Source of the DNA: a virus
Lineage: Duplodnaviria > Heunggongvirae > Uroviricota > Caudoviricetes
Length of the DNA: 64,000 bases
Strand: one strand, 5' to 3'
IMG/VR virus record: IMGVR_UViG_3300010162_000009
The position numbers and the translations under genes were made by a program. Numbering within the stretch: the first letter of the stretch is position 1; each line of letters begins with the position of its first letter. Shown here piece by piece: positions 40,087 through 58,084 of this stretch. Below the pieces are notes generated by a model. The model made no database searches, was not told where the DNA came from, and saw only the letters and a list, made by a program, of their open reading frames with translations.

Positions 40087-40875
40087 TTAAGAAAAATTTA
40101 CCCGCTGTAGTGTTATTTGAACATATTCTTCTGATATATCCATACCAATATATTTTCGATTGTTTAGTTTTGCCATTTTACATGTTGTTCCCGCGCCACA
40201 CATTGGGTCGAATACTAAATCACCCTCATTGGTCCACGATAAAATATGATCTTCTGCTAATTTTTCCGGAAATATTGCCGGGTGTTTGAATGCAATTTTA
40301 TCTCTAGTTGAACCACCTAATCCCACAGCATATTCCCATATGTTTGTTAATGTTTTTTCCTTTTTAAGTTCAGCAGTTACTTTATTATTAACACCATCCG
40401 CTTTCTTATTAGCAACCAACTTCTCAACACCATGTCTTACCGTTTTTGTTTTAATAGGATTGAATGTCTTCGGGGAACCTTTCGATAAAATGAACATAAA
40501 TTCATGACAATTAGTATATGCGTTTGACCTCATGAAAGGGGTGTTTTTCTTTTTATAAATCATTATGTCGTGAACATTGAAACCTATTTCCTGAAAGAAT
40601 AAACATTGCTTAAAACTTGTTAAACTACGATTTCCATTGGTTATTTTATCACCAACCACCCACACAACAACACCACCAATTTTCACAACACGATACAATC
40701 CTTTGGCAATATTCTCAAAGTCAAAATCATATCCAGAATATGATCTGAGATTATCATATGGCGGACTCGTTACTACTAAATCAACCGTTTCGCTTGGAAT
40801 GGTTTTCATACCAACAAGACAATCAACATTGTAAATGTTATTTTCATCAACGTATACAATATTATTAGATAACAT
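40087..40875 (-). CDS. DNA methyltransferase, beta-class with an SPPY motif IV (N4-cytosine or N6-adenine).
   Basis: VVTSPPYDNLRSY and DPMCGAGTT motifs. Confidence 0.85.
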   Translation of the reverse strand: MLSNNIVYVDENNIYNVDCLVGMKTIPSETVDLVVTSPPYDNLRSYSGYDFDFENIAKGLYRVVKIGGVVVWVVGDKITNGNRSLTSFKQCLFFQEIGFNVHDIMIYKKKNTPFMRSNAYTNCHEFMFILSKGSPKTFNPIKTKTVRHGVEKLVANKKADGVNNKVTAELKKEKTLTNIWEYAVGLGGSTRDKIAFKHPAIFPEKLAEDHILSWTNEGDLVFDPMCGAGTTCKMAKLNNRKYIGMDISEEYVQITLQRVNFS

Positions 40876-42235: not shown

Positions 42236-42646
42236 TTAGTTATACATTTTGAATACATATTTTATCCAACCATACCATTTTCTTTCTTTACCATAATTAA
42301 GGTTTTCTGAATTGTAATACGCTTCTTGTTCAAATGAAATAGATTTGTACGCCACGTTATCACCTTTTCTTCTCGTGATAACAACAACAAGAAGTTTTAC
42401 TAACCATTCCAAAAAATACCATAGATAATATGGTAAAATAAGCATTTCTTTTGCTTGCATCGTATGAATCATTTCATGACGAATAGTATTGTCAGATATT
42501 CGTTTCATACTGTTTGACATACGTGTATATGTGGGAAATGGATAAAGATTTATTGCCGAAAACCCCTGTGGAGGTATCATACCAGCAGGATTTTCAACCA
42601 AAGTTAGTTTCATTCCATACGCTTCTCTTTTAAATTTTTGTTTCAT
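42236..42646 (-). CDS. Putative HExxH zinc metallopeptidase-like protein, 136 aa.
   Basis: HEMIH motif (IRHEMIHTMQA). Confidence 0.4.
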   Translation of the reverse strand: MKQKFKREAYGMKLTLVENPAGMIPPQGFSAINLYPFPTYTRMSNSMKRISDNTIRHEMIHTMQAKEMLILPYYLWYFLEWLVKLLVVVITRRKGDNVAYKSISFEQEAYYNSENLNYGKERKWYGWIKYVFKMYN

Positions 42647-43234: not shown

Positions 43235-46200
43235 CTATTGAGAATCATTTCCTAAATAAATAGCACCATCCTTATCTACCGTAAATCCTGGTCCTAACTT
43301 AATCTTAATGGAATCACCTAAAGCTAACACTGGAAGAGAGATGGTGAAAATATCAAGGGTGGTACCGCTACTTCGTGGCATATATAACTTTCCATTGTAA
43401 ATTTGACTTGTGTTTCGAGTTATATTTGCAGGAATTGTTGTCGTGCGAGTAGTTTCTGTTACCAAATCAAAAATCTCAAGGGTGGCACCACCACCACTTT
43501 GTGGCATATATAACTTTCCGTTGAAAATTTGACACGTAAAACGCTGCATATGTGTAGGAAGTGTTACCGTGCGAGTGGTTTCTTCTTCCAAATCAAAAAT
43601 ATCAAGTGCGCTGCCACTATGTTGTGGCATATATAACTTTCCGTTGAAAATCTGACTTATCCATCGCTGCCTACTTGCAGGAAGCGTTATCGCACGACCA
43701 GTTTCCGTCACCAAATCAAAAATCTCAATGGTGGCACCACCACCACCTTGTAGCATATATAACTTTCCGTTGAAAATCTGACTTGTGTATCGCCACATAT
43801 TTGTAGGAAGTGTTACCGTGCGAGTAGTCTCTGTTACCAAATCAAAAATCTCAAGGGTGGTACCACCAGTTCCTGGTATATATAACTTTTCGTTGAAAAT
43901 TTGACTTGTGTCTCGTTCCATATCTGTAGGAAGCGTTACCGTGCGAGTTGTTTCCCTAACCAAATCAAAAATCTCAAGGGTGGTACCACCAGTTCCTGGT
44001 ATATATAACTTTTCGTTGAAAATTTGACTTGTTTTTCTACCCATATTGGGAACTGTTACCGTGCGAGTGGTTTCAGTTACCAAATCAAAAATATCAAGGG
44101 TAGTATTCCAATCACTTGGTATATATAACTTTCCGTTGAAAATTTGACTTGTTTGTCTCTGCATATTTGTAGGAAGTGTTACCGTGCGAGTAGTTTCTTC
44201 TCCATTGGTAATTTTAATATTTGGATAAGCAGGAAACCTTATTTCATTATTAACTTTTTCAACCTCTTGTCCACCAAGCATAATTTTCGGAATATCAGGA
44301 TATACCGGAAGGATAAACTCATTACCAACCTTCTCTACCGGAATACCTAAATCAAAAATCTCAAGAGCGGTACCACCATCTTGCGGCATATATAACTTTC
44401 CGTTGAAAAATTGACATGTAGCCTTCCATACAGATGTAGAAAGTGTTGCTGTGTATTCTTCTTCTGTTACCAAATCAAAAATCTCAAGGATATTACCACC
44501 ATCTGGTATATATAACTTTCCGTCGAAAATATGACTTGTTTGTCGTCCCATGTTTGTAGGAAGTTCTACCATGCGAGTAGTCTCTGACACCAAATCAAAA
44601 ATCTCAAGGGCGGTGCCATTATGTTGTGGTAGATATAACTTTCCGTTGAAAATCTGACTTGTTTGTCTCTGCATATTTGTAGGAAGTGTTACCGTGCGAG
44701 TGGTTTCCGCTATCAAATCAAAAATCTCAAGGGTATTACTACCATCTCGTGGCATATATAACTTTCCGTTGAAAATTTGACTTGTTCTTCGCCACATATT
44801 TGTAGGAAGTGTTACCGTGCGAGTAGTCTCTGTTACCAAATCAAAAATCTCAAGGGTGGTACCACTATATTGTGGTAGATATAACTTTCCGTTGAAAATC
44901 TGACTTGTTTGTCTCTGCATATTTGTAGGAAGTGTTACCGTGCGAGTAGTTTCAGTTACCAAATCAAAAATTTCGAGAGTGGTACCATTATCTCGTGGCA
45001 TATATAACTTTCTGTTGAAAATTTGGTTTGTTATTCGCCCCATACTTGTAGGAAGTGTAACCGTGCGAGTGGTTTCTGTAACCAAATCAAAAATCTCAAG
45101 GGTGGTATTCCAATTCCCAGACATATATAAATTTCCGTTGAAAATTTGACTAGTACGTCTCTGCATATTTGTAGGAAGTGTTACCGGGCGACCAGTTTCT
45201 GTACCAATTTTTACAGATGTATAAGGTGGAAATACTAATTTATCTCCTATCTTTTTTACATTATTTCCTACAATGTTAAAAATTTCAAGGTTTTTCCCAA
45301 AATTTTCTGGTATATATATTTTCTCATCGAAAATTTGAATTATACTTCGTTGCATGTTTCTAGAAAATCTTACCACGTGAGTAGTTTCTGTTACCAAATC
45401 AAAGATCTCGAGGATGGAATTCCCTGCCATATATAACTTTCCCTTGTAGATTTGACTTCCAGGACGATTCATGTTTGTAGGAAGTGTTACCGTGCGAGTA
45501 GTTTCTGTTACCAAATCAAAGATCTCGAGGGTTGTACCTTGCTCCTGTGGTATATATAACTTATCATCATAAATTTGACTTGTGTATCGCAGCATATCTG
45601 TAGGTAGTTCTACTGTTCGCATTTCTTCAGTGGTTAAATCAAATATTTCCATAGTTGTATAACCAGAACTTGGTATATATAATTTACCATCGTATAGTTG
45701 CCCAGTATATCTCAACACATCTGTTGGAAGGGTAATATATCGCGTTTCCTCGGTATTTAAATCAACAACTTCAAGTTTCACACCAGAACTTTCCGGTATA
45801 TATAACTTTTCGTTATATAAAAAACTTGTTAGTTTATTTGTCATCATGTCACTCAAACTAGGGAGTCCAATCATACTCACTTCTTCAGTTTTTAAATCAA
45901 ATACTTCAATCATTTGGTACATAACTGAAGGTATATATAACTTATCATTATAAATATGACTTGTAAGTCTTCCTATAGTTCCATTAAGATCTACTGTTCG
46001 CATTGTTTTAGAACTTAAATCAAATATTTCGAGAACAACACTACATAGTAAATATAATTTACCATTGTAAATTTGACTACCCAATCTCTGAAATTCAGTA
46101 GGAAGTTCTATTGTTTCTATTATTTCTATACTTTCTTCTCCAATACTAGCGAATTGTACTGCCGTGTCAATTTTCTCTAATTTTGCTTCATCTATTTCCG

Positions 46201-49200
46201 GAACTTTTGGATAAGGGGGGAAATATAACACATCACCCACTTTTTCTACTTCAATGTTAATATCATAAACCTCTAAATTTCCTTCACCTAAATTTTCTGG
46301 TATATATAATTTTCCTTCGTGAATATGAAATGAACTATCTCTATATGAATCTACTGGAAGTGTTACCACACGAGTTTTTTCAGTAGCAAAATCAAATATT
46401 TCAAGATTTGAACCATAACCACTTGGTATGTATAATTTTCCATTTAAAATGTTACATATAAAACGATCTGTTAAAATAGGAAGTTTTATTGTACGGATTT
46501 CTTCTGTGGTTAAATCAAAAATAACCATGTTTGTACCATTATTTTCTGGAACATATAACTTTCCATTATAAATTTTAAAAGTTTCATAGGTTATATTCGT
46601 AGGTAGTGTTACATATCGCACCTCCTCAGTAGTTAAATCAAAAATTTCAACGGTTTTATCATTCGATTCACCGCTCATCATATATAATTTTCCATCAAAA
46701 ATTTGAGATGTGTTTAACATATGTTTAACCATGGTAAGCGATACTGTGCGTGTTTCCTCTGTAGTTAAATCAAATATATCAAGACCATTATTATTACTTC
46801 GACGTATATATAACTTTCCGTTGAAAATTTGACTTGTCCTTCTAGAATTCCAACCATCAGGTAATGATACTGTGCGTGTAGTTTCAGTTACAAAATCAAA
46901 AATTTCAATAATATTCTGATTCAGACCTAACATATACAATTTATCATCATAAATTTGACTTGTTGCGCGTCCCATATCACTTGTAGGAAGTGATATGTTG
47001 TAAAATTCTTTGGTTTTTATATCAAATATATCCATTCTTGTACCCCAACCTTCAGGTATATACAACTTTTCGTTATAAATTTGACTTGTAAAACGGTTTA
47101 AAACAACAGGTATCTTGAATATTTCAGTATTATCTTTACCAATAAATGCGGTTATTTCCGGATAAGCAGGAAATACCAATTCCGTTCCATTTTTTTCTAT
47201 TGATGTGGTAATACTAAATATTTCAAGGGTGTTACCATTACCTTGTGGCATATATAACTTTCCGTTGAAAATATGACTTGTATGTCGCTGCATACTTGTA
47301 GGAAGCATTACCGTGCGAGTGGTCTCTGACACCAAATCAAAAATCTCAAGGGTGTTACCATTGTCTTGTGGTATATATAACTTTCCGTTGAAAATTTGAC
47401 TTGTAGAACGAGTCATAGATGATGTAGGAAGTGTTACCGTGTGGGTGGTTTCTGCCGTTAAATCAAAGATTTCGAGGGTTGTATTCCAATCTCCAGGTAT
47501 ATATAACTTTCCGTTATAAATTTGACTTGTACGTCGCTGCATACTTGTAGGAAGTATTACCGTGCGAGTGGTCTCTGACACCAAATCAAAAATCTCAAGG
47601 GTGTTACCATTCCATTGCGGCATATATAACTTTCCGTTGTAAATTTGACTTGTGATTCGCTCCATACTTGTAGGAAGTGCTACCGTGCGAGTAGTTTCCG
47701 TCAGAAAATCAAAAATCTCAAGGGTAGCACTACCACTTCCTAGTATATATAACTTTCCGTTGAAAATTTGGCTTGTTCTTCGCCACATATTTGTAGGAAG
47801 TGTTACCGTGCGAGTGGTCTCTGACACCAAATCAAAAATCTCAAGGGTAGCACTACCACTTCCTGGTATATATAACTTTCCGTTGAAAATTTGACTTATT
47901 AGTCGAGACATATTTGTAGTAGGAAGTGTTACTATACTTCTTTTACTTGTTAAATCAAATATTTCAATATTATTATATGTTGGTATATATAACTTTCCGT
48001 TATAAATCTGAGTTGCTGATCCCATTTCAATGGAATTTACCTCTATTGTTTCTATTTCTTCTTTAGAATATATAACCGCTGATTGTATAGAACTATCTGA
48101 TTTATTTCCTTGATCAGCGGTAGCAAACTGTGTTGTATCAATTTCCTCATAAGCAGGTAATTTAAATATAATATTAGTATCTGCAGTAGCAAGAGTTATA
48201 ATTTCAAGTGTATCATCCAAAGAAGGTGGTATATATAATTTTCCATTGTAAATTTGGCTAGTATATCTACCTATATCCGCCGGAAGTGTTTCAACATGTA
48301 CCTCTTCCGTTGCTAAATCAAATACTTCAAGTGTAGTATACCAATCTTGTGGTATATATAATTTTCCATTAAAAATTTGACTTGTGTATCGTTCAACATT
48401 AGAAAGAATAGGTAATACACGAGTAATTTCAGTGGCAAAATTAAAAATTTCAATGTTTACATTATTAGGACCTACCATATATAAATTTCCATTGTAAATT
48501 TGGCTAGTTGGTCTATCCATACTTGTTGGAAGCGTTACTGTACGAGTTGTTTCTGTAGTCAAATTAAAAATTTCAAGAGTGGTACCTCCGAATTCTGGCA
48601 TATATAATTCTCCATAGTAAATTTGACTAGTGCGTCTCTGCATACCTGTAGAAAGTGTTACTGTACGAGTTGTTTCTGTAGTTAAATCAAAAATCTCAAG
48701 GGTTGTGTCAACCCCACCCATCATATACAACTTCCCATCATAAATTTGACTCTCATATCTATTAGCTGGTTGTAGTGTTACTGTACGAGTTGTTTCTGTA
48801 GTTAAATCAAAAATCTCAAGGGTTGTTCCACTATGCTCCGGTAAATAAAGATTCCCATTATAAATTTGACTTGTAAAACGCATCATATTTGTTGGAAGTG
48901 TTACCGTGCGAGTAGTTTTTGTAGTTAAATCAAAAATATCAAGGGTATCACCGCTATCTTCTGGTATATATAATTTCCCATTATAAATTTGATTTGTACG
49001 ACGGGTCACGCTAGAAGGAAGTATTTCAGTATCAGTTATTAAATCTTCAAGTGAAATCCATTCACTGTTAGTTATTTTTTGAACAGGTTCATCACCAAGC
49101 ATTATTTCTATTTCAGGTACTTCAGGGTATTCAGGTAATTGTAATTCTGTACCAACTTTTGGGACAAATTCACCCCCAATACTTATTGTCTGAACAGCGG

Positions 49201-50005
49201 TATCAACCTTACCACCCTGTGTGTTAATCGCTGTCCACACGTCACTTAAATCCACGTTTGCGCTAAATTCCTTCCACTGGAAGTCAAAACGATAAAATGC
49301 GGTGTCACTATTTCTGTTATGCCATAAATCACCCAATGTTTCTGATACAGTCGGTTTGTTCACGCCTTCAATACCGTAGGTGGTGTTCGCCACAGAAGAC
49401 CATTCACCATCTTGAATTACATAACATGACCAGAATGTGTCAGCAACCAAATTTGACATGGTTTCTTGATTGTTAACATACCATAATGTTCCGTCACCGT
49501 ACATTTTATCTTCAGGGTTGTTACTCGGAGGTGTCTCCGACACCACCCCACGAAACGTAAAGAAACTGCTTCCCATTATGGACAACATTGTTTCCACCCA
49601 TGATTTTCCGGTGGTTTCTGTCCATTTTGTATTTACTTGTGATTGTAAATTGTTAAGACTTTCTTGTGTTGCGGCATTGTCTGCTTTAGCACCTTGTGCT
49701 GAAGTTGCAAACCCTTCGCTTCTGTCTTTAAATTCGTTAAAACTTGTTTGAGTCGGAGCACTATCTGCTTTAGCACCTTGAGCAGCAGTTGCAAACGCTG
49801 AAGCGTCTTGTAACGCTGTATCTGCTTTTGCACCTTGAGCAGCAGTTGCAAACTGCGATGGATCAATTTCTGGAACGTCTATATTATCTGGTATTGTGTC
49901 TACCATTTCAACAAGCACGTCTTGCAGCACGTTACCAGTAATTGCTTTGCTACTATTTTTGTATATCTTACCTTTGATATACGTTTTTAATTGATTTAGT
50001 GTCAT
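43235..50005 (-). CDS. Giant fibre or structural protein, 2256 aa. N-terminal ~290-aa module shared with 25623-28742, followed by about 45 tandem ~42-aa beta-propeller-like repeats (consensus TTRTVTLPTNMQRRTSQIFNGKLYIP...GTTLEIFDLVTE).
   Basis: Uninterrupted ORF. Repeats visible in the translation and at DNA level. Repeat pattern resembles YVTN/NHL-type propeller blades. Confidence 0.8.
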   Translation of the reverse strand: MTLNQLKTYIKGKIYKNSSKAITGNVLQDVLVEMVDTIPDNIDVPEIDPSQFATAAQGAKADTALQDASAFATAAQGAKADSAPTQTSFNEFKDRSEGFATSAQGAKADNAATQESLNNLQSQVNTKWTETTGKSWVETMLSIMGSSFFTFRGVVSETPPSNNPEDKMYGDGTLWYVNNQETMSNLVADTFWSCYVIQDGEWSSVANTTYGIEGVNKPTVSETLGDLWHNRNSDTAFYRFDFQWKEFSANVDLSDVWTAINTQGGKVDTAVQTISIGGEFVPKVGTELQLPEYPEVPEIEIMLGDEPVQKITNSEWISLEDLITDTEILPSSVTRRTNQIYNGKLYIPEDSGDTLDIFDLTTKTTRTVTLPTNMMRFTSQIYNGNLYLPEHSGTTLEIFDLTTETTRTVTLQPANRYESQIYDGKLYMMGGVDTTLEIFDLTTETTRTVTLSTGMQRRTSQIYYGELYMPEFGGTTLEIFNLTTETTRTVTLPTSMDRPTSQIYNGNLYMVGPNNVNIEIFNFATEITRVLPILSNVERYTSQIFNGKLYIPQDWYTTLEVFDLATEEVHVETLPADIGRYTSQIYNGKLYIPPSLDDTLEIITLATADTNIIFKLPAYEEIDTTQFATADQGNKSDSSIQSAVIYSKEEIETIEVNSIEMGSATQIYNGKLYIPTYNNIEIFDLTSKRSIVTLPTTNMSRLISQIFNGKLYIPGSGSATLEIFDLVSETTRTVTLPTNMWRRTSQIFNGKLYILGSGSATLEIFDFLTETTRTVALPTSMERITSQIYNGKLYMPQWNGNTLEIFDLVSETTRTVILPTSMQRRTSQIYNGKLYIPGDWNTTLEIFDLTAETTHTVTLPTSSMTRSTSQIFNGKLYIPQDNGNTLEIFDLVSETTRTVMLPTSMQRHTSHIFNGKLYMPQGNGNTLEIFSITTSIEKNGTELVFPAYPEITAFIGKDNTEIFKIPVVLNRFTSQIYNEKLYIPEGWGTRMDIFDIKTKEFYNISLPTSDMGRATSQIYDDKLYMLGLNQNIIEIFDFVTETTRTVSLPDGWNSRRTSQIFNGKLYIRRSNNNGLDIFDLTTEETRTVSLTMVKHMLNTSQIFDGKLYMMSGESNDKTVEIFDLTTEEVRYVTLPTNITYETFKIYNGKLYVPENNGTNMVIFDLTTEEIRTIKLPILTDRFICNILNGKLYIPSGYGSNLEIFDFATEKTRVVTLPVDSYRDSSFHIHEGKLYIPENLGEGNLEVYDINIEVEKVGDVLYFPPYPKVPEIDEAKLEKIDTAVQFASIGEESIEIIETIELPTEFQRLGSQIYNGKLYLLCSVVLEIFDLSSKTMRTVDLNGTIGRLTSHIYNDKLYIPSVMYQMIEVFDLKTEEVSMIGLPSLSDMMTNKLTSFLYNEKLYIPESSGVKLEVVDLNTEETRYITLPTDVLRYTGQLYDGKLYIPSSGYTTMEIFDLTTEEMRTVELPTDMLRYTSQIYDDKLYIPQEQGTTLEIFDLVTETTRTVTLPTNMNRPGSQIYKGKLYMAGNSILEIFDLVTETTHVVRFSRNMQRSIIQIFDEKIYIPENFGKNLEIFNIVGNNVKKIGDKLVFPPYTSVKIGTETGRPVTLPTNMQRRTSQIFNGNLYMSGNWNTTLEIFDLVTETTRTVTLPTSMGRITNQIFNRKLYMPRDNGTTLEIFDLVTETTRTVTLPTNMQRQTSQIFNGKLYLPQYSGTTLEIFDLVTETTRTVTLPTNMWRRTSQIFNGKLYMPRDGSNTLEIFDLIAETTRTVTLPTNMQRQTSQIFNGKLYLPQHNGTALEIFDLVSETTRMVELPTNMGRQTSHIFDGKLYIPDGGNILEIFDLVTEEEYTATLSTSVWKATCQFFNGKLYMPQDGGTALEIFDLGIPVEKVGNEFILPVYPDIPKIMLGGQEVEKVNNEIRFPAYPNIKITNGEETTRTVTLPTNMQRQTSQIFNGKLYIPSDWNTTLDIFDLVTETTRTVTVPNMGRKTSQIFNEKLYIPGTGGTTLEIFDLVRETTRTVTLPTDMERDTSQIFNEKLYIPGTGGTTLEIFDLVTETTRTVTLPTNMWRYTSQIFNGKLYMLQGGGGATIEIFDLVTETGRAITLPASRQRWISQIFNGKLYMPQHSGSALDIFDLEEETTRTVTLPTHMQRFTCQIFNGKLYMPQSGGGATLEIFDLVTETTRTTTIPANITRNTSQIYNGKLYMPRSSGTTLDIFTISLPVLALGDSIKIKLGPGFTVDKDGAIYLGNDSQ
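43300..49100 (-). repeat. Long array of ~126-129 bp intragenic tandem repeats with high DNA-level similarity.
   Basis: Recurrent accgtgcgagtagtttctgttaccaaatcaaaaatctcaagggtggtacc units across roughly 5.8 kb. Confidence 0.8.
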
Positions 50006-50020: not shown

Positions 50021-51832
50021 TTATTTGATTATTCCTAATACCTTATCAACTTTTTCAAAGATGATTTTCTTTTTATTGTCTACTGTTAATATATCGGCGT
50101 TTTCCATATATTGTCTTAAATTTGTAAAATCTTTATCCACCCAAGCACCTGGTGTTGAGGGGTCTGTGACCATATCCCAGCAAAGAAGTTCAAAATCATC
50201 TCCAACAATACCTATATTATTTTTTCCGGATTCTACTGAACCAACACCTCTTGAAGACACACCCATTTTAAGTCTATTGAAATAAATATTATTTGCAATA
50301 ATATCTCCGGGCGTGGAACAGATACCGTGTTTAACATATGCTGGTGATATTAATAATTCAAAATCACCTACCACAGTTTTTCCTTCCCACCAAAGTTTTA
50401 AAATATTCATGGAAATACCTTTGGTTGATATGATGGAACTCTCCGGGTGGTCTGAGTTATTAGTCCAGTGTGTCTTTCCATTACACATACAATACCATGT
50501 ATGATTTTTAACTTTAACACACATTACTTTACCCACATATTTTTCTTTTGTTATAGATAAATTTTTGTAAATGGATATGAATTTATTTAATGATTTATAA
50601 GTGAAAAACATATTACTACAATTTTCACCTTTTATTAATCTATCACCTATATATCTATCATATTTTCTATCTTCTTCTTTAAATGTTCCTGAATACCCTA
50701 TTTTTAATTGTATTTCATTTAAATCTAATACCAACCGTTTAGATGTTGAAAAAACATCATTTGAATTTACTCTTTTTCTACCATCACCTAAAACAAACCA
50801 ATCATATAATATGGTTAATAACTCTTTTGATAAGTTTTTTATTTCAAAAGGAATATATTTATCATAACATATACCTAATTTTGATAAGTATGTATGAAGT
50901 CGCGCATCGGTGATAAGAAATACGTTTTTTTCTCCTTCTTTACCACATTTAGTAAATGGTAAACCAAGTTCATTTAACATTGTTTCTATTTCATCAATTA
51001 CTTCTTTCTTTTTTTGGTGAATATAAATTCCATATCCTCTATTTTTTTCATTTCTTTTTGATGCGCTACCTTCTGAAAGATATATACCCATAAATGCCAT
51101 AAATGGTTTTATTGGTAATACAAGATCTTCATTTAATTGTTTTCTAAAATTTTCAGATATATTAAAGTGAGGTTCCTTATTCAATTTAGGTATAATAAAA
51201 AATTCTTCGTCAGTTTTTTTCATCCATTTTCCTTGTTTTAAAAAATGACAATGATTTTGATCTGGTATCATACTATCATACAAATCTTGTGCTGAAAAAT
51301 TTCCTTTATATTTATGGTATCTATCCCATATTGGATAATTGTGATTAGGTGTAACAAGATCGTTGATATGCCTACCTTTTATTCTAATCATATCACCATT
51401 ATGATCAAACACAGGTTTTTCTTCAATAGGATTTATTTCTATTTCCTCTGTTTCAGTGTTGAGTGTTAAAATATTTTCACCAACTTCAACATCTTCAAGT
51501 GTTTTCCAACCGGTTTCGGTTAATATCATTGTATCAGGTGTATAACATTCTCCATATGCTCTTCTTTCTCTGATTTTTACGTTATATTTTTCTACTTCTC
51601 GTTCCAATATTCTTCTAGGATATATTCTACCGTTGGCATTTGGGGTATCGCATTTTTGAAAAACAGCATGTAATACATAAGGAAATGGAATATACCATTC
51701 TTCACTTACCTTACCTTCAAATAACATCTTATCTTCTTTTGGGAGAACATATCCATCATTTTCAAATAGAAATCCGTATCCGTATTTTCCACGTTTTACC
51801 TCTTGTAAATTCTGAACATCTTTTACTTTCAT
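50021..51832 (-). CDS. Prohead core protease (T4 gp21-like) interrupted by an intein. The spliced host protein would be ~239 aa.
   Basis: Exteins: GRIYPRRILEREVEKY..RAYGE / SDHPESS...GVSSRGVGSV. These match the gp21 blocks (KRLYPKRILEKAVKDY...LGELNHP...GVSSRGLGSL) as I recall them. ATAAATAG 19 bp upstream. Confidence 0.8.
   Translation of the reverse strand: MKVKDVQNLQEVKRGKYGYGFLFENDGYVLPKEDKMLFEGKVSEEWYIPFPYVLHAVFQKCDTPNANGRIYPRRILEREVEKYNVKIRERRAYGECYTPDTMILTETGWKTLEDVEVGENILTLNTETEEIEINPIEEKPVFDHNGDMIRIKGRHINDLVTPNHNYPIWDRYHKYKGNFSAQDLYDSMIPDQNHCHFLKQGKWMKKTDEEFFIIPKLNKEPHFNISENFRKQLNEDLVLPIKPFMAFMGIYLSEGSASKRNEKNRGYGIYIHQKKKEVIDEIETMLNELGLPFTKCGKEGEKNVFLITDARLHTYLSKLGICYDKYIPFEIKNLSKELLTILYDWFVLGDGRKRVNSNDVFSTSKRLVLDLNEIQLKIGYSGTFKEEDRKYDRYIGDRLIKGENCSNMFFTYKSLNKFISIYKNLSITKEKYVGKVMCVKVKNHTWYCMCNGKTHWTNNSDHPESSIISTKGISMNILKLWWEGKTVVGDFELLISPAYVKHGICSTPGDIIANNIYFNRLKMGVSSRGVGSVESGKNNIGIVGDDFELLCWDMVTDPSTPGAWVDKDFTNLRQYMENADILTVDNKKKIIFEKVDKVLGIIK
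50456..51547 (-). mobile_element. Intein (~364 aa) with a LAGLIDADG homing-endonuclease domain, inserted between GE and SDHP of the protease.
   Basis: Block A CYTPDTMILTETG; block B TPNHNY; LAGLIDADG-like FMGIYLSEGSAS and WFVLGDGRKR; C-terminal ...THWTNN followed by a Ser +1 residue. Confidence 0.75.
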
Positions 51833-51850
51833 TATAAAAAATATTTTAAT

Positions 51851-51858
51851 ATAAATAG
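51851..51858 (-). promoter_or_regulatory. ATAAATAG motif upstream of the protease-fibre operon.
   Basis: Exact motif. Confidence 0.5.
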
Positions 51859-52073
51859 GATAAATTGTATCTTTCTAACATGTTTAACGTATAATTTAAT
51901 AAATCACATGGTCATGGTAAAAGAAGTTTTAGAATTAGTTTTTGAAAATTGGTGGAAAATCTGTTTGATAGTAATATCATTCGGAGCGTCATTTGGTGTT
52001 TATAGGATCTTCAGAAGAATATCCGAATACGATTACAGACGAAAATAATTAATAAAATTTAAAAAATTGAAAA

Positions 52074-52643
52074 ATGAATGTAAGCAATGAAGTCACATTG
52101 TTATGTGAAGGTGTATCAGTTACCCCATATTCGGGTAGTAAGTTTGAGGTGGTTTTAACCAACCCTAAATCTCAAAGTCCAAATGTTTATATCAAGGAAG
52201 ATGAAAGATTTAAAAATCCATTATATCATATTGATATATATGATGTGATAGAATATTATGGTGAAGAAAAGTTATTAGACGAGATAGACACAGATTCTCG
52301 CACAGCAGTTAACCATTACGGTATCTACAATGTTTTAGAAAACATAGAAGTAAACGATGTAATCGAACATTATGGTGAGAGTGCTATTCTTGAAAAATTA
52401 GGAATAGATGATGTTATTACGAATAAAAATAAAATAACAGATGGGAGATTATTGTTTGATGATAAAACATTTTATACAAGACTTCTATCTCATTTAACTA
52501 CGTGTAAAGCACATTGTCCAATAGGTGAGGATGAACTTCAATATCTTAGGCGAGTCGCTGAAAAACTTCAAAGTTTTCAAATAGAAACGGTTGATAGAGG
52601 TAGCGAAGAATATCGCTATTTGAAGAATTTGGATTTGGTATAA
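52074..52643 (+). CDS. Hypothetical protein with internal DVIE(Y/H)YGE repeats, 189 aa.
   Basis: ORF track. Confidence 0.5.
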   Translation: MNVSNEVTLLCEGVSVTPYSGSKFEVVLTNPKSQSPNVYIKEDERFKNPLYHIDIYDVIEYYGEEKLLDEIDTDSRTAVNHYGIYNVLENIEVNDVIEHYGESAILEKLGIDDVITNKNKITDGRLLFDDKTFYTRLLSHLTTCKAHCPIGEDELQYLRRVAEKLQSFQIETVDRGSEEYRYLKNLDLV

Positions 52644-52689
52644 CGCTACTAATAGGAAGTTAGTGCATTAGAGAACTTTGAAAAACTTG

Positions 52690-52697
52690 CTATTTAT
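52690..52697 (+). promoter_or_regulatory. CTATTTAT motif 21 bp upstream of 52718-54622.
   Basis: Exact motif on the plus strand. Confidence 0.45.
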
Positions 52698-52717
52698 TAT
52701 TGAAAATTAATTAAATT

Positions 52718-54622
52718 ATGTGTAATATGAAAAAGTTTTTTTTATTAAGTTTAGTGGTTTTAGTGATTTCTTTCATGGGTTGTAAACCGGAAGAGTTTCC
52801 TGAGATTATTTATGAAGACTCTGTTGTTTTATTAGACGGAGCATTGATTCTAAACAACGCACCTGTTGATGTAATGGTAACTCGAAAAAACCAGTTGATA
52901 GGTAGTAGATTAAAAGGTATGGTTGCAACCGCCAATGAATACAGGTGGAAATTGGTTGCTGAAATGGGTACATTAGCGGTAGTTGATGACCGAGATAGGA
53001 GCGGTAGAACAGTTAGAAACGCACAAGCAACTCACGTAAAGTTTTCCAGTGGAAATGGACAGGGTTCAGTGTTTGTGTCGTATAATAATAAAGGTACACC
53101 AAATATTGGTGGAGTTGTTATCTTTGATTATTTTGTAAAAGAAGGATCTATTGAATCGGTTAGCGTTGATTTAGACGCAACAAGTGTTCTTAGAATGCCC
53201 AGAGCACAAATCAATGCTGTGGATTACGACCCTGTAATGAATAGATTGTATATGGTTGGTGCCAATGAAGACACACGCACAGGATACAAAGGAGACGCAA
53301 ACCTATCATTTGTTATGGTTATGGATTTGGATCCGGGCACAGGAAAATTCATGTTGAAAGATCCTGTGTTTATGAAACAACTCACATCGTATCAAGCAAC
53401 CTCTGTTAAAAAGTTCGGTGATAAAGTATATGTTACTGTTGGTGACGGTACAAAAAGTACTCAAGGCGGTTTATATATATTTAATGAATCGGACAACTTT
53501 AAACAAGTCGGTCAAATATTGAGATTAGAACATGCAAGAAGCGTTGACGTTGATGAATCAGGCATCTATGTTTTCCAAGCAAATTCAAGTAAGGTTACAA
53601 GATATAATTTAGACGGAAGTGGTGGAACAGTAATATTCTTTGATTCAGAGAGGGCATTACAAAAAGACGCAAAGAGCGAATTACTTGTTTGGAAAGATCT
53701 TGTATTTGTTACCGAAAACGAAGCGGGTATGACCATGTTGGATAAATCCAATGGAAGAGTATTACTTCAATTGGAAAGACCAGGTGACTGTCCTGAAAAT
53801 GAGGTTATGAATAGTATTTCGATTAACTCTGATAAGAAGAGAGCAGCAAGTGGTGAATTAGTTCAATCAGATTTACTGTTAATTGCCAGCGGACAATCAG
53901 GAATGATATGGTACGACATAGTAAAAGATGAAACAGGTCAAACAAGGTTGATGGTGAAAGGTGTTAATAGTATTCTTGAAAACGAAAACAGCGTTAACTA
54001 TGTTGAATCTCGTGGAAACATCGCATTTGTTGCTGACGGTTTAGGTGGGTTGAGAGTATTATATCTGTTGGGTAAAGAAAGTGATGATAATATTTGTCCT
54101 GACGGTACAAAATTCTATACGTTCTTAAAAGACAACGGTAACGACCACGGTAATCCATATACAAGAAAGGTAGGTGATGTATTTGTTCAAGCAGAAGGTG
54201 ATAATTTGGTTGTGTATATTTTCAGTATTGCGCAATTACCAGATGGTTTCGTATATGTTGATGCTGACGGAGTTGCAAATCCAAACGTAAAAACCGTTGA
54301 TTTGAAATACGCAGGTGTTATGTTCGGACCAAGTCTGAAACACTTTGAAGATATTAACCTGTTAAGAGGTAATGGAAATATGAACAACGGTGTTATGAAC
54401 AATTATAACTATCAATATCGTGAATATATTCCTGGTGGCGTTAAATTTACATTCCCAATGGATAGCGAAGCACTTAAAAATGGAACAAATTTAATGGTTG
54501 TTTATAGCGGAAACGGAGCATGGGGTTATGGCGACCCTAACGGTCCAAGCGGTTCCACAGGAACAGGAGCACACAACAACGGACAAATTATTACACTTGG
54601 CGACATTGTTTATTGTCAATGA
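52718..54622 (+). CDS. Large lipoprotein (lipobox SFMGC), 634 aa, beta-rich; candidate virion or surface protein.
   Basis: Signal peptide plus Cys; Gly-rich C-terminus; late-type promoter motif. Confidence 0.55.
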   Translation: MCNMKKFFLLSLVVLVISFMGCKPEEFPEIIYEDSVVLLDGALILNNAPVDVMVTRKNQLIGSRLKGMVATANEYRWKLVAEMGTLAVVDDRDRSGRTVRNAQATHVKFSSGNGQGSVFVSYNNKGTPNIGGVVIFDYFVKEGSIESVSVDLDATSVLRMPRAQINAVDYDPVMNRLYMVGANEDTRTGYKGDANLSFVMVMDLDPGTGKFMLKDPVFMKQLTSYQATSVKKFGDKVYVTVGDGTKSTQGGLYIFNESDNFKQVGQILRLEHARSVDVDESGIYVFQANSSKVTRYNLDGSGGTVIFFDSERALQKDAKSELLVWKDLVFVTENEAGMTMLDKSNGRVLLQLERPGDCPENEVMNSISINSDKKRAASGELVQSDLLLIASGQSGMIWYDIVKDETGQTRLMVKGVNSILENENSVNYVESRGNIAFVADGLGGLRVLYLLGKESDDNICPDGTKFYTFLKDNGNDHGNPYTRKVGDVFVQAEGDNLVVYIFSIAQLPDGFVYVDADGVANPNVKTVDLKYAGVMFGPSLKHFEDINLLRGNGNMNNGVMNNYNYQYREYIPGGVKFTFPMDSEALKNGTNLMVVYSGNGAWGYGDPNGPSGSTGTGAHNNGQIITLGDIVYCQ

Positions 54623-54644
54623 TAGCGTTTAATACAAAAATTAG

Positions 54645-54676
54645 AACCACAGATTTTCCTCTGTGGTTTTTTTTAT
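54645..54676 (+). terminator. Rho-independent terminator (aaccacag-attttcct-ctgtggtt followed by a T8 run).
   Basis: Perfect 8-bp stem followed by a T-run. Confidence 0.7.
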
Positions 54677-54715
54677 GTATGTTTATGATAATATAAAAAT
54701 TTTAAATAAAATATA

Positions 54716-55648
54716 ATGGAACAACAATATTTGGATATGATGCGACGTATCCTCGATATGGGTGATTACAAAAGCGCAGCAAGGGAGAATTTACCGGGAA
54801 CAAAAGAGATATTTGTTCAAATGATTAGACACGATTTACAGAAAGGATTTCCGTTGCTTACAACGAGAGAAATGCCCATTAGAGGAACATTTGAAGAACT
54901 GAAATGGTTTTTGAAAGGGAGTACAGATGTTAGAGAACTTATTCGTAATAAGTGCAACTTTTGGAGTGAAGATGTGTATAAATTCAATAAGAAAGGATAT
55001 GACAAATTTCCCGATTATGATCTTTGGTTGGAAGTAATAAAAAACACTGAAACAGAATCTTCACATACGGATGCTGGTGAATTATACGGAAAACTGTGGC
55101 GAAACTTCAATGGTGATACTGACCAAATATGTAATTTAGTCAATAGGATATTGAAAGAACCAAATTCTCGTTATCAAATAGTATCGGCATGGAATCCTTC
55201 GGTAGTATCTCGTGGTTTAAGCGCATTACCTTCTTGTCATATGATATGGCAAACAAATGTAAGAGAAGGAAAATATTTGGATTTGGTTATGATGCAAAGA
55301 TCATGTGATATTCCTATCGGTGTACCGGTTAATATTGCAAGTTACGCTTTATTAATCCACATATTATGCTTAATATTACCATACTATCCTGGTGAACTTA
55401 TATGGATAGGTAACAGCGCACATATCTACGAAAATCAGTTTGAAACATGTGAAGAACAGTTAAGTAGAACACCAAGAGAATTACCACAACTTAATATAAA
55501 ACTACGTCCATACATTCAAAATACTTGGGTATCAGAAGAACTAACAGATTTTTTTGATTCATTAAGGTTTGAAGATATTGAACTTATCAATTACAATCCT
55601 CACCCAAAACTCAAATACACTTTTTCAAGTGGGTTAATCAAAAAATAA
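54716..55648 (+). CDS. thyA: Thymidylate synthase (ThyA-type).
   Basis: Active-site LPSCH; QRSCDIPIGVPVNIASYALL with the Asp and Asn typical of dUMP-specific enzymes; YGKLWR. Confidence 0.85.
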   Translation: MEQQYLDMMRRILDMGDYKSAARENLPGTKEIFVQMIRHDLQKGFPLLTTREMPIRGTFEELKWFLKGSTDVRELIRNKCNFWSEDVYKFNKKGYDKFPDYDLWLEVIKNTETESSHTDAGELYGKLWRNFNGDTDQICNLVNRILKEPNSRYQIVSAWNPSVVSRGLSALPSCHMIWQTNVREGKYLDLVMMQRSCDIPIGVPVNIASYALLIHILCLILPYYPGELIWIGNSAHIYENQFETCEEQLSRTPRELPQLNIKLRPYIQNTWVSEELTDFFDSLRFEDIELINYNPHPKLKYTFSSGLIKK

Positions 55649-55649
55649 C

Positions 55650-56126
55650 ATGTTAGAAAAGTTAACATTTAAATATCCTAAAGAATTTCCCATTAAGTTA
55701 GGAGATAGGTTTGTAGTTGGTTGCTGTTTTTGGCAACAACCCGGTTGGACAGAATCTCATCCAGGTATTGTTTTCTCACCGGTGTTACAATATCGTGAAG
55801 TAAATAGCGCAGAGAGTTTAATAGAAGATACACTTATTGATGCCGTAGTACATTCTACATTAGAGTCAGATGATGATATTATAGATGTTAATGAGAATCT
55901 TAGTTGGGCGGGAACTTCATTAAAAACATTAGAACGTAGAATTAAAAACTCCATTGAAAGTTTTAGATTGTATCCTGAAAAGTGTAAATTATTATACGAA
56001 AACAGGTATTCAGAAATAATTGTTCAAGAAGTAGAAATCATCGACATACATGATAATGAAAATGATCGTGAGGTATTAGATTGGAAAATCATTGAAGAAT
56101 TAGTTATTAAACCATATAACACATAA
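55650..56126 (+). CDS. Hypothetical protein, 158 aa.
   Basis: ORF track; ATGTTAG overlap with thyA. Confidence 0.5.
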   Translation: MLEKLTFKYPKEFPIKLGDRFVVGCCFWQQPGWTESHPGIVFSPVLQYREVNSAESLIEDTLIDAVVHSTLESDDDIIDVNENLSWAGTSLKTLERRIKNSIESFRLYPEKCKLLYENRYSEIIVQEVEIIDIHDNENDREVLDWKIIEELVIKPYNT

Positions 56127-56157
56127 AAAAAGAGAGGATTTTTTCCTCTCTTTTCAA
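56127..56157. terminator. Bidirectional terminator (aagagagga-ttttt-tcctctctt).
   Basis: Perfect 9-bp stem with flanking A and T runs between convergent genes. Confidence 0.7.
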
Positions 56158-56174
56158 TTACACATCCATCGGGA

Positions 56175-57569
56175 TTATTTTTTCTTGCGGTAGTTTCTGA
56201 TTGTTTTTTGAATTTTGTCTTGAGCAGCCGCTTCGTTTAATGAAGCACCACCAACCGCTTTTTTAGGTGAATACTCCCATAACCTTTTCATATTATCAAA
56301 ACTATTTTTTAGTTTTTCTGGGTTTTTATATTCAAGTATAAAAGATTGATTGTAGTTATCGCACTCCATTAAATATTCGTTACCTGCTTTGTCAACCATA
56401 ACAAACTTATTACCGGGTGTTTTATATTGTTCTGGAATTAAACTTTTAACATGATTTTCATTAAGGAAAACTGTTTTGTTAAATTTTAAACGTTTTATTT
56501 TGTTTTCATTTTTCTTTTCATCTCCGATACCAAGAGTATCATTAACTTTATCACCAACAGCGTCACCAACCTTTTGACCTGCTGCTGTTGAAGCGGTCAT
56601 AGCAGCGTTTGTTCCAGCGTCTACGGCGACTTGTTTTGCTATATCTTTACAACTTTGTGTACCTGCGGTTTTCGCAGCACTACCAGCGGCTGTCTTACCA
56701 GCAGTTCTTGCAGCAGTACCAGCCGCCGCTTTACCTGCTGCCGCCCTACCAGCTGCGCCAACTACCGCACCAATGACTTCATTAACTTCTTCATTGACTT
56801 CACCTTCCGCTTCGCCTTTATTTTTATTCCTATTCATTAATGCCGATGCACCTATACCAGCGGCATTAACCGCGATAGGTATAAGAGGAACAACTTCATT
56901 AAGTAACTGTGAATTCCCCCTAACCATTTTATTTTCATTCACCACCTTTTTGAATGTTGGTACCGCCAAAGAGTATTTTTTACCACTTTCGTCTACAAAA
57001 TTAATTCGAGTTTTATCCTCATTTAATCCTACAACTGTAAGTTTAATATTATTCTTTGATTCTACAAAGACATCACCTTTTTTCACTTTACTTTCGTCTG
57101 TTGAGAATTTAGGGGTTTTGGTTTGCTGTGTAATCCTAGTGTTTATTTGTGTAGTTCCCATAATATTTGCATATCCTTTATTATCATTTTGCATTTTATC
57201 CCAGAAACCTTTGTTTCCTTTTATAGAAATACCACCAGATGTTTCATCATCAATATCCGGTTGGTCTGGTGAAGATTTACCTTGAACAAGTGCTTTTACC
57301 CTATCTTGATATTTCTTGTCAATAGAATCATAATTTAAGTTCAATGCGTTTCTTCCATAGGGTTGGTTTTCTCCCCTGTAACCTTTGATTTCAGTAGAAT
57401 TACCTTCAGGAGTAGAATCTTTTATACGTTCTTCACCATCCTTCTTAGCATCTTTACTATCATTTTCATTTTCTGATCTAATATTAGTAAAAAGTTTTCC
57501 GTTTGTTGAATCACTTTCTGCTGCTTCATTAATCAGTTTTCCTAACTCTGCTAAATTTACCATAGCCAT
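56175..57569 (-). CDS. Gly/Ala-rich protein, 464 aa; permuted paralog of 23328-25145; candidate virion-internal protein.
   Basis: Shared segments with 23328-25145; ATAAATAG 30 bp upstream. Confidence 0.55.
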   Translation of the reverse strand: MAMVNLAELGKLINEAAESDSTNGKLFTNIRSENENDSKDAKKDGEERIKDSTPEGNSTEIKGYRGENQPYGRNALNLNYDSIDKKYQDRVKALVQGKSSPDQPDIDDETSGGISIKGNKGFWDKMQNDNKGYANIMGTTQINTRITQQTKTPKFSTDESKVKKGDVFVESKNNIKLTVVGLNEDKTRINFVDESGKKYSLAVPTFKKVVNENKMVRGNSQLLNEVVPLIPIAVNAAGIGASALMNRNKNKGEAEGEVNEEVNEVIGAVVGAAGRAAAGKAAAGTAARTAGKTAAGSAAKTAGTQSCKDIAKQVAVDAGTNAAMTASTAAGQKVGDAVGDKVNDTLGIGDEKKNENKIKRLKFNKTVFLNENHVKSLIPEQYKTPGNKFVMVDKAGNEYLMECDNYNQSFILEYKNPEKLKNSFDNMKRLWEYSPKKAVGGASLNEAAAQDKIQKTIRNYRKKK

Positions 57570-57598
57570 ACTCTTATTAATTTAATAATATTTTATAA

Positions 57599-57606
57599 AT
57601 AAATAG
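57599..57606 (-). promoter_or_regulatory. ATAAATAG motif upstream of 56175-57569.
   Basis: Exact motif. Confidence 0.45.
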
Positions 57607-57630
57607 TGGTTTTTTTCAATAATAGTTAAA

Positions 57631-57666
57631 AAACAAAAAAACACACCTGTAAAAACAAGTGTGTTA
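57631..57666 (-). terminator. Terminator for 57695-57983 (acacac/gtgtgt stem with a T-run on the minus strand).
   Basis: Hairpin plus an A-run on the plus strand. Confidence 0.5.
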
Positions 57667-57694
57667 GTTTTTCCGTTTAGTTAGAAATTACGGA

Positions 57695-57983
57695 TTAGGG
57701 ATTTTCATCATCATCCTCTTCGTCGTCTTCGATATCAACGTCGAATACAATTTCGTCGCTCAGAATTACTGGGCTGCTACAAGCAACTACTAAAACCTCT
57801 TTCGTGGTTGTACCACAACGGTTAGTCAGTTTGAACACGCATGGAAATTCTCCATATTCGGTAGGTTCTCCATACAACTCACCAGTTGCCGTATCTAATT
57901 GCACACCTGCGGGTAGCGGTCCTTCAACCAGTTCCCATAAACCGGTTGACCCTTTGTAAAGTATCTGTTTCCTTTCTTCCATC
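57695..57983 (-). CDS. Small Ig-like (BIG/He_PIG-type) domain protein with an acidic tail.
   Basis: LPAGVQLDTATGELYGEPTE motif. The track start at 58021 is a TTG that abuts the promoter motif, so the start was moved to the ATG at 57983 (MEERKQ). Confidence 0.45.
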
Positions 57984-58023
57984 TTACTTATTTTTTTTAT
58001 TACGTTATTATTTAATTCCAATA

Positions 58024-58031: not shown

Positions 58032-58084
58032 TAAAAAATTTTTCATAAATTACCTTATTACTAAAAAAATTAAAAATATTTTTT

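Follow-up and report, generated by a model that had tools for sequence, protein, structure and literature searches.

The window (the whole 64,000-nucleotide stretch of viral DNA that was analysed) carries on its minus strand an open reading frame specifying 2256 amino acids, which runs uninterrupted from its ATG start to its stop codon, as the earlier note on this DNA had claimed. It directly follows a prohead protease gene and does not lie in a recognisable tail module. A paralogous, conventional tail fibre is encoded 15 kb away. The features are as follows:

43235–50005, minus strand: whole putative fibre gene, 2256 aa, ATG start, stop codon included, no internal stop
49871–50005, minus strand: conserved head MTLNQLKTYIKGKIYKN...DTIP, aa 1–45, presumed to serve in virion attachment; near-identical in the 1039-aa paralogue and in P0012
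49631–49870, minus strand: three FAT(A/S)AQGAKAD fibre-shaft repeats, aa 46–125
49220–49630, minus strand: non-repeat domain, aa 126–262, found besides only in the paralogous fibre (73% identity)
49031–49219, minus strand: shaft-like segment KVDTAVQTISIGGEFVPKVGTELQLPEYPEVPE ahead of propeller 1, aa 263–325
48173–49030, minus strand: propeller 1, aa 326–611, 7 blades
48050–48172, minus strand: long linker 1–2, aa 612–652, with the FKLPAY strand and a degenerate fibre repeat, FATADQGNKSD
47192–48049, minus strand: propeller 2, aa 653–938, 7 blades, homogenised with propellers 5 and 6
47123–47191, minus strand: short linker 2–3, aa 939–961, NGTELVFPAYPEI
46244–47122, minus strand: propeller 3, aa 962–1254, 7 blades, diverged (~61% nucleotide identity to the others)
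46115–46243, minus strand: long linker 3–4, aa 1255–1297, VGDVLYFPPYPKVPE and the shaft motif KIDTAVQFASIGEE
45254–46114, minus strand: propeller 4, aa 1298–1584, 7 blades, diverged; blades 5 and 6 resemble those of propellers 5 and 6 (mosaic)
45188–45253, minus strand: short linker 4–5, aa 1585–1606, IGDKLVFPPYTSV
44330–45187, minus strand: propeller 5, aa 1607–1892, 7 blades, the most symmetric and the unit whose structure was modelled
44186–44329, minus strand: long linker 5–6, aa 1893–1940, with the G..L.(F/L)P.YP motif twice
43322–44185, minus strand: propeller 6, aa 1941–2228, 7 blades
43238–43321, minus strand: short C-terminal tail LGDSIKIKLGPGFTVDKDGAIYLGNDSQ, aa 2229–2256, conserved in P0012
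25623–28742, minus strand: paralogous 1039-aa tail fibre with the same N-terminal module, more shaft repeats and a C-terminus of tail-fibre type

The presence of a tRNA with anticodon TCA raised the question of stop-codon recoding. This is unsupported, since TAA, TGA and TAG all serve as stops and the standard code gives a coding density of 85%.

Repeat Anatomy

Tandem Repeats Finder detected a 123-nt (41-aa) period, together with longer periods at 246 and 369 nt, the best of them scoring 1635; such periodicity is far above chance. Anchoring on the motif QI(F/Y)NGKLY throughout the protein gave 42 blades with a modal spacing of 41 aa (range 39–45), grouped as six blocks of exactly seven. Their consensus is TVTLPTnM.R.TS.QIFNGKLYIP...G.tTLEIFDLvTETTR. 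The linkers between propellers are 22–48 aa in length, long and short ones alternating. The motif G..L.(F/L)P.Y occurs seven times: after each of propellers 1–5 (twice within linker 5–6) and once ahead of propeller 1. The C-terminal tail past propeller 6 has a degenerate form only. The earlier note had described some 45 tandem blades of 42–44 aa in five or six consecutive propellers, with linkers recurring three or four times. The tandem array, the repeat consensus and the number of propellers stand, and the linkers do define super-repeats, but the blades are fewer and typically shorter than proposed and the linker motif more frequent.

N-Terminal Module and Paralogous Fibre

Over its N-terminal ~290 aa the propeller protein is 72–81% identical to the product of ORF 25623–28742, the C-terminus of which matches tail-fibre PHROGs as well as regions that phage records label peptidase S74 domain or long tail fibre. 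Because this module matches that of a second fibre, we regard the propeller protein as a fibre paralogue whose distal module has been exchanged; the shared module points to the tail fibres, which supports the fibre identity put forward in the earlier note. AlphaFold2 modelling of the N-terminal 330 aa from a three-row alignment was uninformative (pLDDT 35), so that it is the paralogy by itself that points to an attachment role. The FAT(A/S)AQGAKAD shaft repeat is present in many metagenomic proteins (P0003, P0022–P0029), mostly unannotated. Searches of IMG/VR and the JGI metagenomes with the N-terminal module found no loci, and elsewhere within the window there are neither other paralogues of the module nor other propeller genes. 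NCBIfam gave no match to the whole protein, to one propeller or to the paralogous fibre.

Fold and Family of the Propellers

Structure prediction of one seven-bladed unit, propeller 5, yielded a beta-propeller, that is, four-stranded antiparallel blades arranged radially in a closed ring, as had been anticipated in the earlier note. Its assignment to the YVTN/NHL type, on the other hand, has to be replaced: no YVTN, NHL or lactonase model was matched in Pfam at E≤1 or in NCBIfam, and by sequence the family is Kelch-derived. The best Pfam match of the whole protein is Kelch_FKB95 (205.5 bits, cut-off 70), followed by Kelch_2 (28.2 bits, cut-off 21.3), both scores being summed over many repeats; a single propeller scores 37.8 bits against Kelch_FKB95, below the same cut-off, and has no Kelch_1 match. 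The PHROGs matches of the propeller are solely to families of unknown function.

The connection to undisputed Kelch proteins was made through a jumbo-phage protein (L009 ORF 9725–11029) which scores 191 bits on Kelch_1 (cut-off 20.1). Its hhalign comparison with the propeller profile gave a probability of 99.7% (E 3.9e-27, 34% identity), in register. This protein has six canonical blades, which are longer than the 41-aa blades of the fibre. What is shared with the Kelch family (PF01344 and related; galactose oxidase, Keap1, NanM) is the four-stranded blade and the motif in register, R..TSQIYNGKLY ... EI(F/Y)D ... LP..M.R, and galactose oxidase has the same number of blades, seven, as each of the fibre propellers. 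The fibre differs from Kelch systems in carrying six propellers in one chain, and its blades depart from the canonical signature: the Tyr is present, but the Gly-Gly doublet is replaced by P-x and the Trp by T or R.

Structurally the propeller bears a high resemblance to YVTN-type propellers. The PDB profile matches to 1l0q, 3bws and YncE are weak, however, and sequence identity to seven-bladed propellers of the YVTN/YncE/Lp49 and Vgb types is 9–14%; judged by sequence, the link to Kelch is far stronger. WD40 was rejected, as there is no GH, FD stands at the WD position and Pfam WD40 is not among the matches. Tako8, a designed protein whose identical 40-aa repeats follow a WD40-like pattern, did match strongly, but the match comes to only ~8 bits per blade and was discounted because it is the sum of low-scoring identical repeats.

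Relatives Bearing the Same Propeller

Relatives of the propeller, 30–67% identical, have seven blades per propeller of the pattern TSQIYNGKLY(L/M)P...(L/M)(E/D)I(Y/F)D. Those inspected (metagenomic P0001, P0002, P0073 and P0075; IMG/VR L007 and L008) carry 1–3 propellers each. In P0002, whose gene directly follows the tape-measure gene, the propeller is at the C-terminal end; in P0073 it accompanies GpJ FNIII-A and Phage-tail_3 domains, in P0075 BppL_N, and in L007 it closes a repeat protein of >3900 aa. To judge from these architectures, gpJ-like, BppL-like and post-tape-measure tail proteins have the homologous propeller in their distal part, where the receptor is bound. Their N-terminal parts (gpJ-like, BppL_N, LamG or long domain repeats) differ from that of the fibre, and several continue past the propeller into an extra C-terminal domain, where the fibre has only 28 aa beyond propeller 6. 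P0012, encoded on a 942-nt contig (L005), shares the N-terminus and the C-terminal tail of the fibre but has only three blades. The number of propellers, which the earlier note had called exceptional, exceeds that of the inspected relatives within this phage subfamily, but metagenomes also contain proteins with many canonical Kelch propellers (8–9 matched stretches).

Among 50,697 phage records, searched at both the DNA and the protein level, none contained a relative of the gene; the sole match was a weak one (24.6%) to a Paenibacillus phage structural protein. Megablast of the flank 50021–64000 found nothing. Jumbo phage CBB, which has unusual hair-like tail appendages, is confirmed to carry a Kelch-domain protein in its virion (PMC5259590); such jumbo-phage virion proteins, for example CBB_552, are among the Kelch systems closest to the fibre. 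The receptor-binding proteins of Staphylococcus phage phi11 and Brochothrix phage NF5 are also fibre or baseplate proteins whose propeller platform carries the receptor-binding sites (PMC12917162). These have one five-bladed propeller per chain, unrelated in sequence and followed by tower domains, and no sequence match between them and the fibre was found.

Blade Variation and Integrity of the Assembly

Blades share on average 66% nucleotide identity, with values of 73–79% among propellers 2, 5 and 6 and of ~61% for propellers 3 and 4; the similarity between units, which the earlier note had called high, is uneven. The mosaic pattern of identity makes its proposal of a recombinogenic locus plausible. 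Strand residues are the most conserved part of the blade, and variation is focused in the loops NM-x-R-x and P-xxx-G-x. Since the loops of a beta-meander alternate between faces, these two share one face of the propeller, the one on which Kelch and WD40 propellers usually bind their ligands. A crude omega was ~0.4–0.5 for the core and 0.85–1.0 for the loops; it compares paralogous blades, a few of them one residue out of register, does not show positive selection, and its value near 1 in the loops is explained equally well by relaxed constraint and by diversifying selection.

Highly repetitive, recently amplified propellers, with Kelch among their lineages, were described by Pereira and Lupas in 2022 (PMC9218822). 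The fibre resembles these, and propeller lectins built from near-identical blades, in that its blades within one propeller reach 90% identity at the protein level; it departs from them in being amplified at two levels, blade and whole propeller, to give 42 blades in a viral fibre. Its strong blade symmetry could be explained by structural amplification alone.

Collapse or expansion of such repeats during assembly might have produced the observed length from a gene with fewer or more propellers, or from an interrupted one. The best blade pair (5.3/5.5) is 95% identical at the nucleotide level, the longest exact repeat is 78 nt, P0012 with its three blades has the look of a related gene collapsed in assembly, and the exact protein is missing from the public gene index, so that there is no independent copy. 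We nevertheless consider an artefact very unlikely. Each of the six blocks numbers exactly seven blades, the first and last of them diverged; the frame is intact across 6.8 kb; relatives likewise show seven-bladed units; common read lengths, like the largest k-mers that current assemblers use, exceed 78 nt; and most blade units can be told apart because the crude synonymous divergence between blades is 0.4–1.0. The exact six-by-seven pattern and the shortness of the longest exact repeat argue for a correct assembly.

Proposed Function

Based upon these sequence comparisons we think it reasonably probable that the gene encodes a ~250-kDa virion fibre, most likely a tail fibre, of a large uncultivated T4-like phage, which would bind a repetitive host surface ligand multivalently. 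Where in the virion the protein would sit, how it would oligomerise, that it binds and what it binds are set out here as we infer them. The first ~290 residues comprise the presumed attachment head, the three FATAAQGAKAD shaft repeats and the non-repeat domain, and both fibres may dock on the same kind of virion site, their distal modules differing. The distal module consists of six predicted closed seven-bladed propellers of shortened (41-aa) Kelch-type blades on short linkers, each linker opening with a G..L.FP.YP strand and the three long ones adding shaft-repeat motifs. Its most probable role would be to bind the host ligand, probably a polysaccharide or other host surface sugar, multivalently and with high avidity as the phage adsorbs. 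Ligands may differ between the homogenised propellers (2, 5 and 6) and the diverged ones (3 and 4).

Alternatively, the propellers might be purely structural, serving as rigid beads for length, stiffness or spacing, with recognition left to another protein or to the last propeller and the C-terminal tail. Many phage fibres do contain long series of repeated non-binding domains, and the conservation of the strands, the near interchangeability of blades in propellers 2, 5 and 6 and the retention of the short C-terminal tail in P0012 would all agree with this. We hold it to be unlikely, given that gpJ-like and BppL-like relatives have their single propeller distally, at the end that binds the receptor, and that variation falls on two loops of one face and is not evenly spread. 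Somewhat less likely again is environmental adhesion, in which the protein would be a decoration or whisker binding mucin or matrix glycans, with a role like that of the Hoc Ig-like domains, and would retain the phage near its hosts. In its favour, the gene adjoins that of the head-maturation protease and lies outside a tail module; weak Kelch relatives bear the source name N-acetylneuraminate mutarotase, and CBB combines Kelch virion proteins with hair-like tail appendages (PMC5259590). The N-terminal module is, however, common to a fibre with a classical tail-fibre C-terminus, and homologous propellers are located in tail-tip proteins. That the propellers are enzymes, such as polysaccharide lyase or oxidase depolymerases after the manner of Vgb lyase, galactose oxidase or the endosialidase propeller domain, is highly improbable: identity to such enzymes is only 10–14%, no enzyme family model was matched in Pfam or NCBIfam, and six copies with near-identical blades and without a unique active-site blade would be atypical of propeller enzymes.

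There is also a small chance, comparable to that of environmental adhesion, that the array acts as a multi-specificity "glycan velcro", in which gene conversion and unequal recombination reshape at least two propeller classes (2/5/6 and 3/4). If so, there would be up to 42 blade-level sites per chain, or 126 if the fibre is trimeric; recombination between blades and whole propellers would alter specificity and length; and the three-blade P0012 would be a real short form, its propeller completed by oligomerisation. For lectin-like sugar binding at each blade, blade symmetry and the focusing of variation on loops provide indirect evidence; we know of no lectin activity in this phage propeller subfamily.

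Implications

Since the function is arrived at by inference, the protein is at present valuable chiefly because it gives structural and binding work a well-defined object. With respect to annotation, the blade is a Kelch repeat shortened to 41 aa, and a single propeller falls below the Kelch_FKB95 cut-off; a dedicated profile would label 69 clusters at E≤1e-30 and 585 at E≤1e-10 in a library of 50%-identity representatives. The gene presents a natural two-level amplification in a virus, of blades and then of whole propellers, which informs the origin of propellers from single blades and the retuning of binding by repeat arrays. Should the protein be a real virion fibre, it would extend phage receptor-binding designs from the 1–3 propellers of inspected relatives to six complete propellers per chain. 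If its propeller classes are remodelled by recombination, its repeats would offer a way of changing host range that differs both from diversity-generating retroelements and from the swapping of whole fibre genes.

Repeat array and fibre identity

The ORF at 43235..50005 on the minus strand encodes, without interruption, a protein of 2256 aa which begins with an N-terminal module of approximately 290 aa (presumed attachment head, FATAAQGAKAD shaft repeats and a non-repeat domain). Anchoring on the motif QI(F/Y)NGKLY gave 42 blade units at a modal spacing of 41 aa, and at the DNA level Tandem Repeats Finder reported a period of 123 nt with super-periods of 246 and 369 nt (43347-45207, 47246-47919 and 48476-48998). 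Five larger gaps (63-89 aa) divide the array into six runs, each of exactly seven blades:

Propellers of the 2256-aa protein
Propeller 1: aa 326-611
Propeller 2: aa 653-938
Propeller 3: aa 962-1254
Propeller 4: aa 1298-1584
Propeller 5: aa 1607-1892
Propeller 6: aa 1941-2228

The linkers between them measure, in order, 41, 23, 43, 22 and 48 aa, that is, long and short linkers alternate. An earlier note on this DNA had the blade consensus correct and, in proposing five or six propellers, was largely right on their number; its figures of about 45 blades of 42-44 aa were slightly off, and the linker motif which it saw three or four times occurs seven times.

A tblastn search with contig L005, which encodes a short three-blade relative (P0012), led to a second ORF of 1039 aa (25623-28742, minus strand) which has the N-terminal module in common with the 2256-aa protein. 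The two are approximately 71% identical over residues 1-123 and 73% identical over residues 46-293 (81% over aligned columns). The 1039-aa protein carries more numerous FATAAQGAKAD repeats and a C-terminus of tail-fibre type, which matches several tail-fibre PHROGs as well as stretches of phage records annotated as peptidase S74 domain or long tail fibre subunits. Because of the common N-terminal module and this C-terminus, the two proteins are paralogous fibres that share a proximal module and differ in the distal one, and the phage thus encodes at least two fibres whose proximal part is common. The assignment of the 2256-aa protein to the fibres in the earlier note was therefore largely right. 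The motif VGGLAVTKTGGVLEFPEYPD stands between the FATAAQGAKAD repeats of the 1039-aa fibre, and for this reason the G..L.FP.YP element found after each of propellers 1-5 is a shaft element. Further shaft motifs (FATADQGNKSD, KIDTAVQFASIGEE and LGGQEVEKVNNEIRFPAYP) occur in the three long linkers.

Fold and propeller family

The beta-propeller fold suggested in the earlier note was borne out by structure prediction. The AlphaFold2 model of propeller 5 with its flanks (pLDDT 85, pTM 0.80; core mostly >90) contains 28 strands, in seven sets of four; confidence was low for the flanking linkers.

The best Pfam matches of the whole 2256-aa protein were to Kelch_FKB95 (205 bits), the model of an F-box-associated Kelch-type propeller, and to olfactomedin. 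A single propeller scored 37.8 bits on Kelch_FKB95, against a Pfam cut-off of 70, and no match was found in NCBIfam. The top match in a profile search of PDB sequences was Tako8, a designed protein of identical 40-aa repeats with a WD40-like pattern, whose score is the sum of approximately 8 bits per blade across those identical repeats. It was followed by Fbw7, a Kelch protein and the YVTN proteins 1l0q, Lp49 and YncE.

The decisive link to a family came from L009 (IMG/VR UViG_3300029984_000001), a 264-kb jumbo phage contig with four tandem paralogous genes of approximately 430 aa each at 7105-12398. Each specifies a six-bladed propeller possessing both a TSQIYNGKIY motif and the canonical Kelch GG and W; the set is a multi-gene counterpart of the fused six-propeller gene. 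One of these proteins scored 191 bits on Kelch_1 and aligned in register (99.7% probability, E 3.9e-27, 34% identity) with profile A1, built from the six propellers of the 2256-aa protein and four homologous propellers from two metagenomic proteins. The blades of the 2256-aa protein carry neither the GG doublet nor the Trp. Since the L009 proteins bridge to canonical Kelch_1, these blades appear to be shortened Kelch repeats which have lost both features. The YVTN/NHL label of the earlier note is wrong by sequence, the family being Kelch-derived, but understandable by fold because the closest solved structures belong to the YVTN group.

Relatives of the propeller

While a word-indexed search found few relatives, an exhaustive profile search returned 2919 representatives at E<=1e-3, of which 585 remained at E<=1e-10 and 69 at E<=1e-30. 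The closest share the blade motif and likewise have propellers of seven blades. They include:

Metagenomic proteins carrying related propellers
P0001, 1578 aa: three propellers; N-terminal part weakly matching a PHROG tail-protein family
P0002, 1602 aa: one propeller; gene directly after the tape-measure gene, C-terminal domain matching a tail-fibre PHROG
P0073, 1721 aa: one propeller; GpJ FNIII-A and Phage-tail_3 domains
P0075, 808 aa: two propellers; BppL_N domain
P0013, 304 aa: one propeller; on a crAss-like contig
L007 protein, >3900 aa: one terminal propeller, 66-67% identical to propeller 5, after a long run of domain repeats of approximately 90 aa

The last of these ORFs is carried by two near-identical IMG/VR contigs (L007 149-11749 and L006 149-11746), and in L006 it is broken into 2692 and 1154 aa. 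From these architectures and contexts, the propeller module recurs, in one to three copies, at the end of phage tail proteins that is distal and binds the receptor. The search also returned giant proteins in which 8-9 stretches matched; the two inspected (P0072 and P0089) are more distant and have canonical Kelch arrays interspersed with other domains. Among the subfamily members examined, which form part of the match list, six propellers is the maximum. Jumbo phages have been reported to encode Kelch-domain proteins, one of which is confirmed as part of the CBB virion (PMC5259590); in the literature covered, which is incomplete, we found no published description of tandem propellers in a phage fibre.

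Integrity and evolution of the array

The public gene index yielded no independent copy of the fibre gene. A related protein is P0012 (232 aa), encoded by the 942-nt contig L005 (ENA ERZ27257304, k141_1285919; 1-942), which has the first 60 residues of the 2256-aa protein, one shaft repeat, only three blades and a C-terminal tail of like type. The DNA upstream of P0012 is a better match to the DNA preceding the 1039-aa gene than to that preceding the 2256-aa gene. P0012 might be a genuine short form, but a collapsed or chimeric short-read assembly is the likelier explanation, and as such L005 shows that this fibre family is hard to assemble. One might then ask whether the length of the 2256-aa gene is itself an assembly artefact. 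Several points argue against this: all six propellers have exactly seven blades, with terminal blades diverged as expected; the frame, in which the earlier note had considered an interruption, is intact through the 6.8 kb of 43235..50005; the longest exact repeat is 78 nt; and seven-blade units are found in the relatives too.

Mean identity between the 42 blades is 51% for protein and 66% for nucleotides. Propellers 2, 5 and 6 are mutually 73-79% identical at the nucleotide level, whether compared in register or not, and propellers 3 and 4 have diverged (approximately 61%). Within propeller 4, blades 5 and 6 are 74-78% identical to blade 5.3 and resemble those of propellers 5 and 6, whereas the remaining blades (57-62%) do not, a mosaic such as would be expected of gene conversion. 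The most diverged blades are the first and last of each propeller. Synonymous divergence between blades, by a crude estimate, is 0.4-1.0, which suggests that the array is not very recent. These features fit the continual blade amplification described for propellers, Kelch included (PMC9218822).

Variable loops and presumed function

Over all 42 blades, column entropy is low for the strands and the NG turn and high for N-M-x-R-x and P-x-x-x-G-x, which in the model of propeller 5 are the loops between strands 1-2 and 3-4. In a beta-meander, each loop points to the face opposite that of the loop before it, so that both variable loops would be on one face of the propeller. Crude dN/dS values between blades are approximately 0.4-0.5 for the core and 0.85-1.0 for the loops. 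Based upon the loop variation and the homologous propellers in tail-tip proteins, the most likely role would be multivalent binding, during adsorption, to a repetitive ligand on the host surface, which is probably a glycan.

The virion location and oligomeric state of the 2256-aa fibre, like its binding and its ligand, are inferred. The common N-terminal module would permit the phage to mount the propeller fibre alongside a conventional one. Most tail fibres are trimeric; were this one so, a seven-bladed propeller could not occupy the three-fold axis, and the propellers would be disposed around shaft nodes built by the long linkers. Because linker lengths alternate one might speculate that the arrangement is possibly P1 | P2-P3 | P4-P5 | P6.

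Genomic setting

No close relative of the phage was found in the phage collection, and the genes adjoining the fibre gene are not a tail module. The small proteins encoded downstream had no informative family match.

Other genes of the window
2071-3552 (+): HNH-type homing endonuclease, directly upstream of the portal gene
3577-5523: T4-like portal protein (35-36% identity)
5823-8112 (+): cluster of seven tRNA genes
20244-21266 (+): HNH-type homing endonuclease, paralogue of that at 2071-3552
21275-23239 (+): DnaK/Hsp70 homologue, most similar (approximately 62% identity) to those encoded by the 630-735-kb metagenomic phage genomes LR756502, LR745206 and LR756501
37176-38120 (+): DNA methyltransferase (phrog_67)
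40087-40875 (-): DNA methyltransferase (phrog_67)
42236-42646 (-): 136-aa protein encoded downstream of the fibre gene, at a distance of two genes, with an HEMIH motif and a match to a PHROG annotated as protease; it might conceivably act in fibre maturation
50021-51832 (-): gp21-like prohead protease (Peptidase_S77, PHROG 207), directly upstream of the fibre gene (15 nt) and split by an intein with Hint and LAGLIDADG domains
58085-60421 (-): 778-aa protein, unusual in a phage, with a match to sensor histidine kinases in its C-terminal third and 41% identity to part of a 735-kb metagenomic phage genome

The tRNA at 6925-6999 has the anticodon TCA, was called SeC by ARAGORN and would read UGA. 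Wholesale stop recoding is unlikely, as all three stops are in use (TAA 36, TGA 12, TAG 11) and coding density under the standard code is 85%.

Significance

In this fibre six Kelch-type propellers in a row make up the distal module; the relatives identified in this analysis carry between one and three. The building block is already known, and the function is one that we infer; the architecture is nonetheless striking, and provides a clean system in which to study how propellers are amplified and how multivalent adsorption works.
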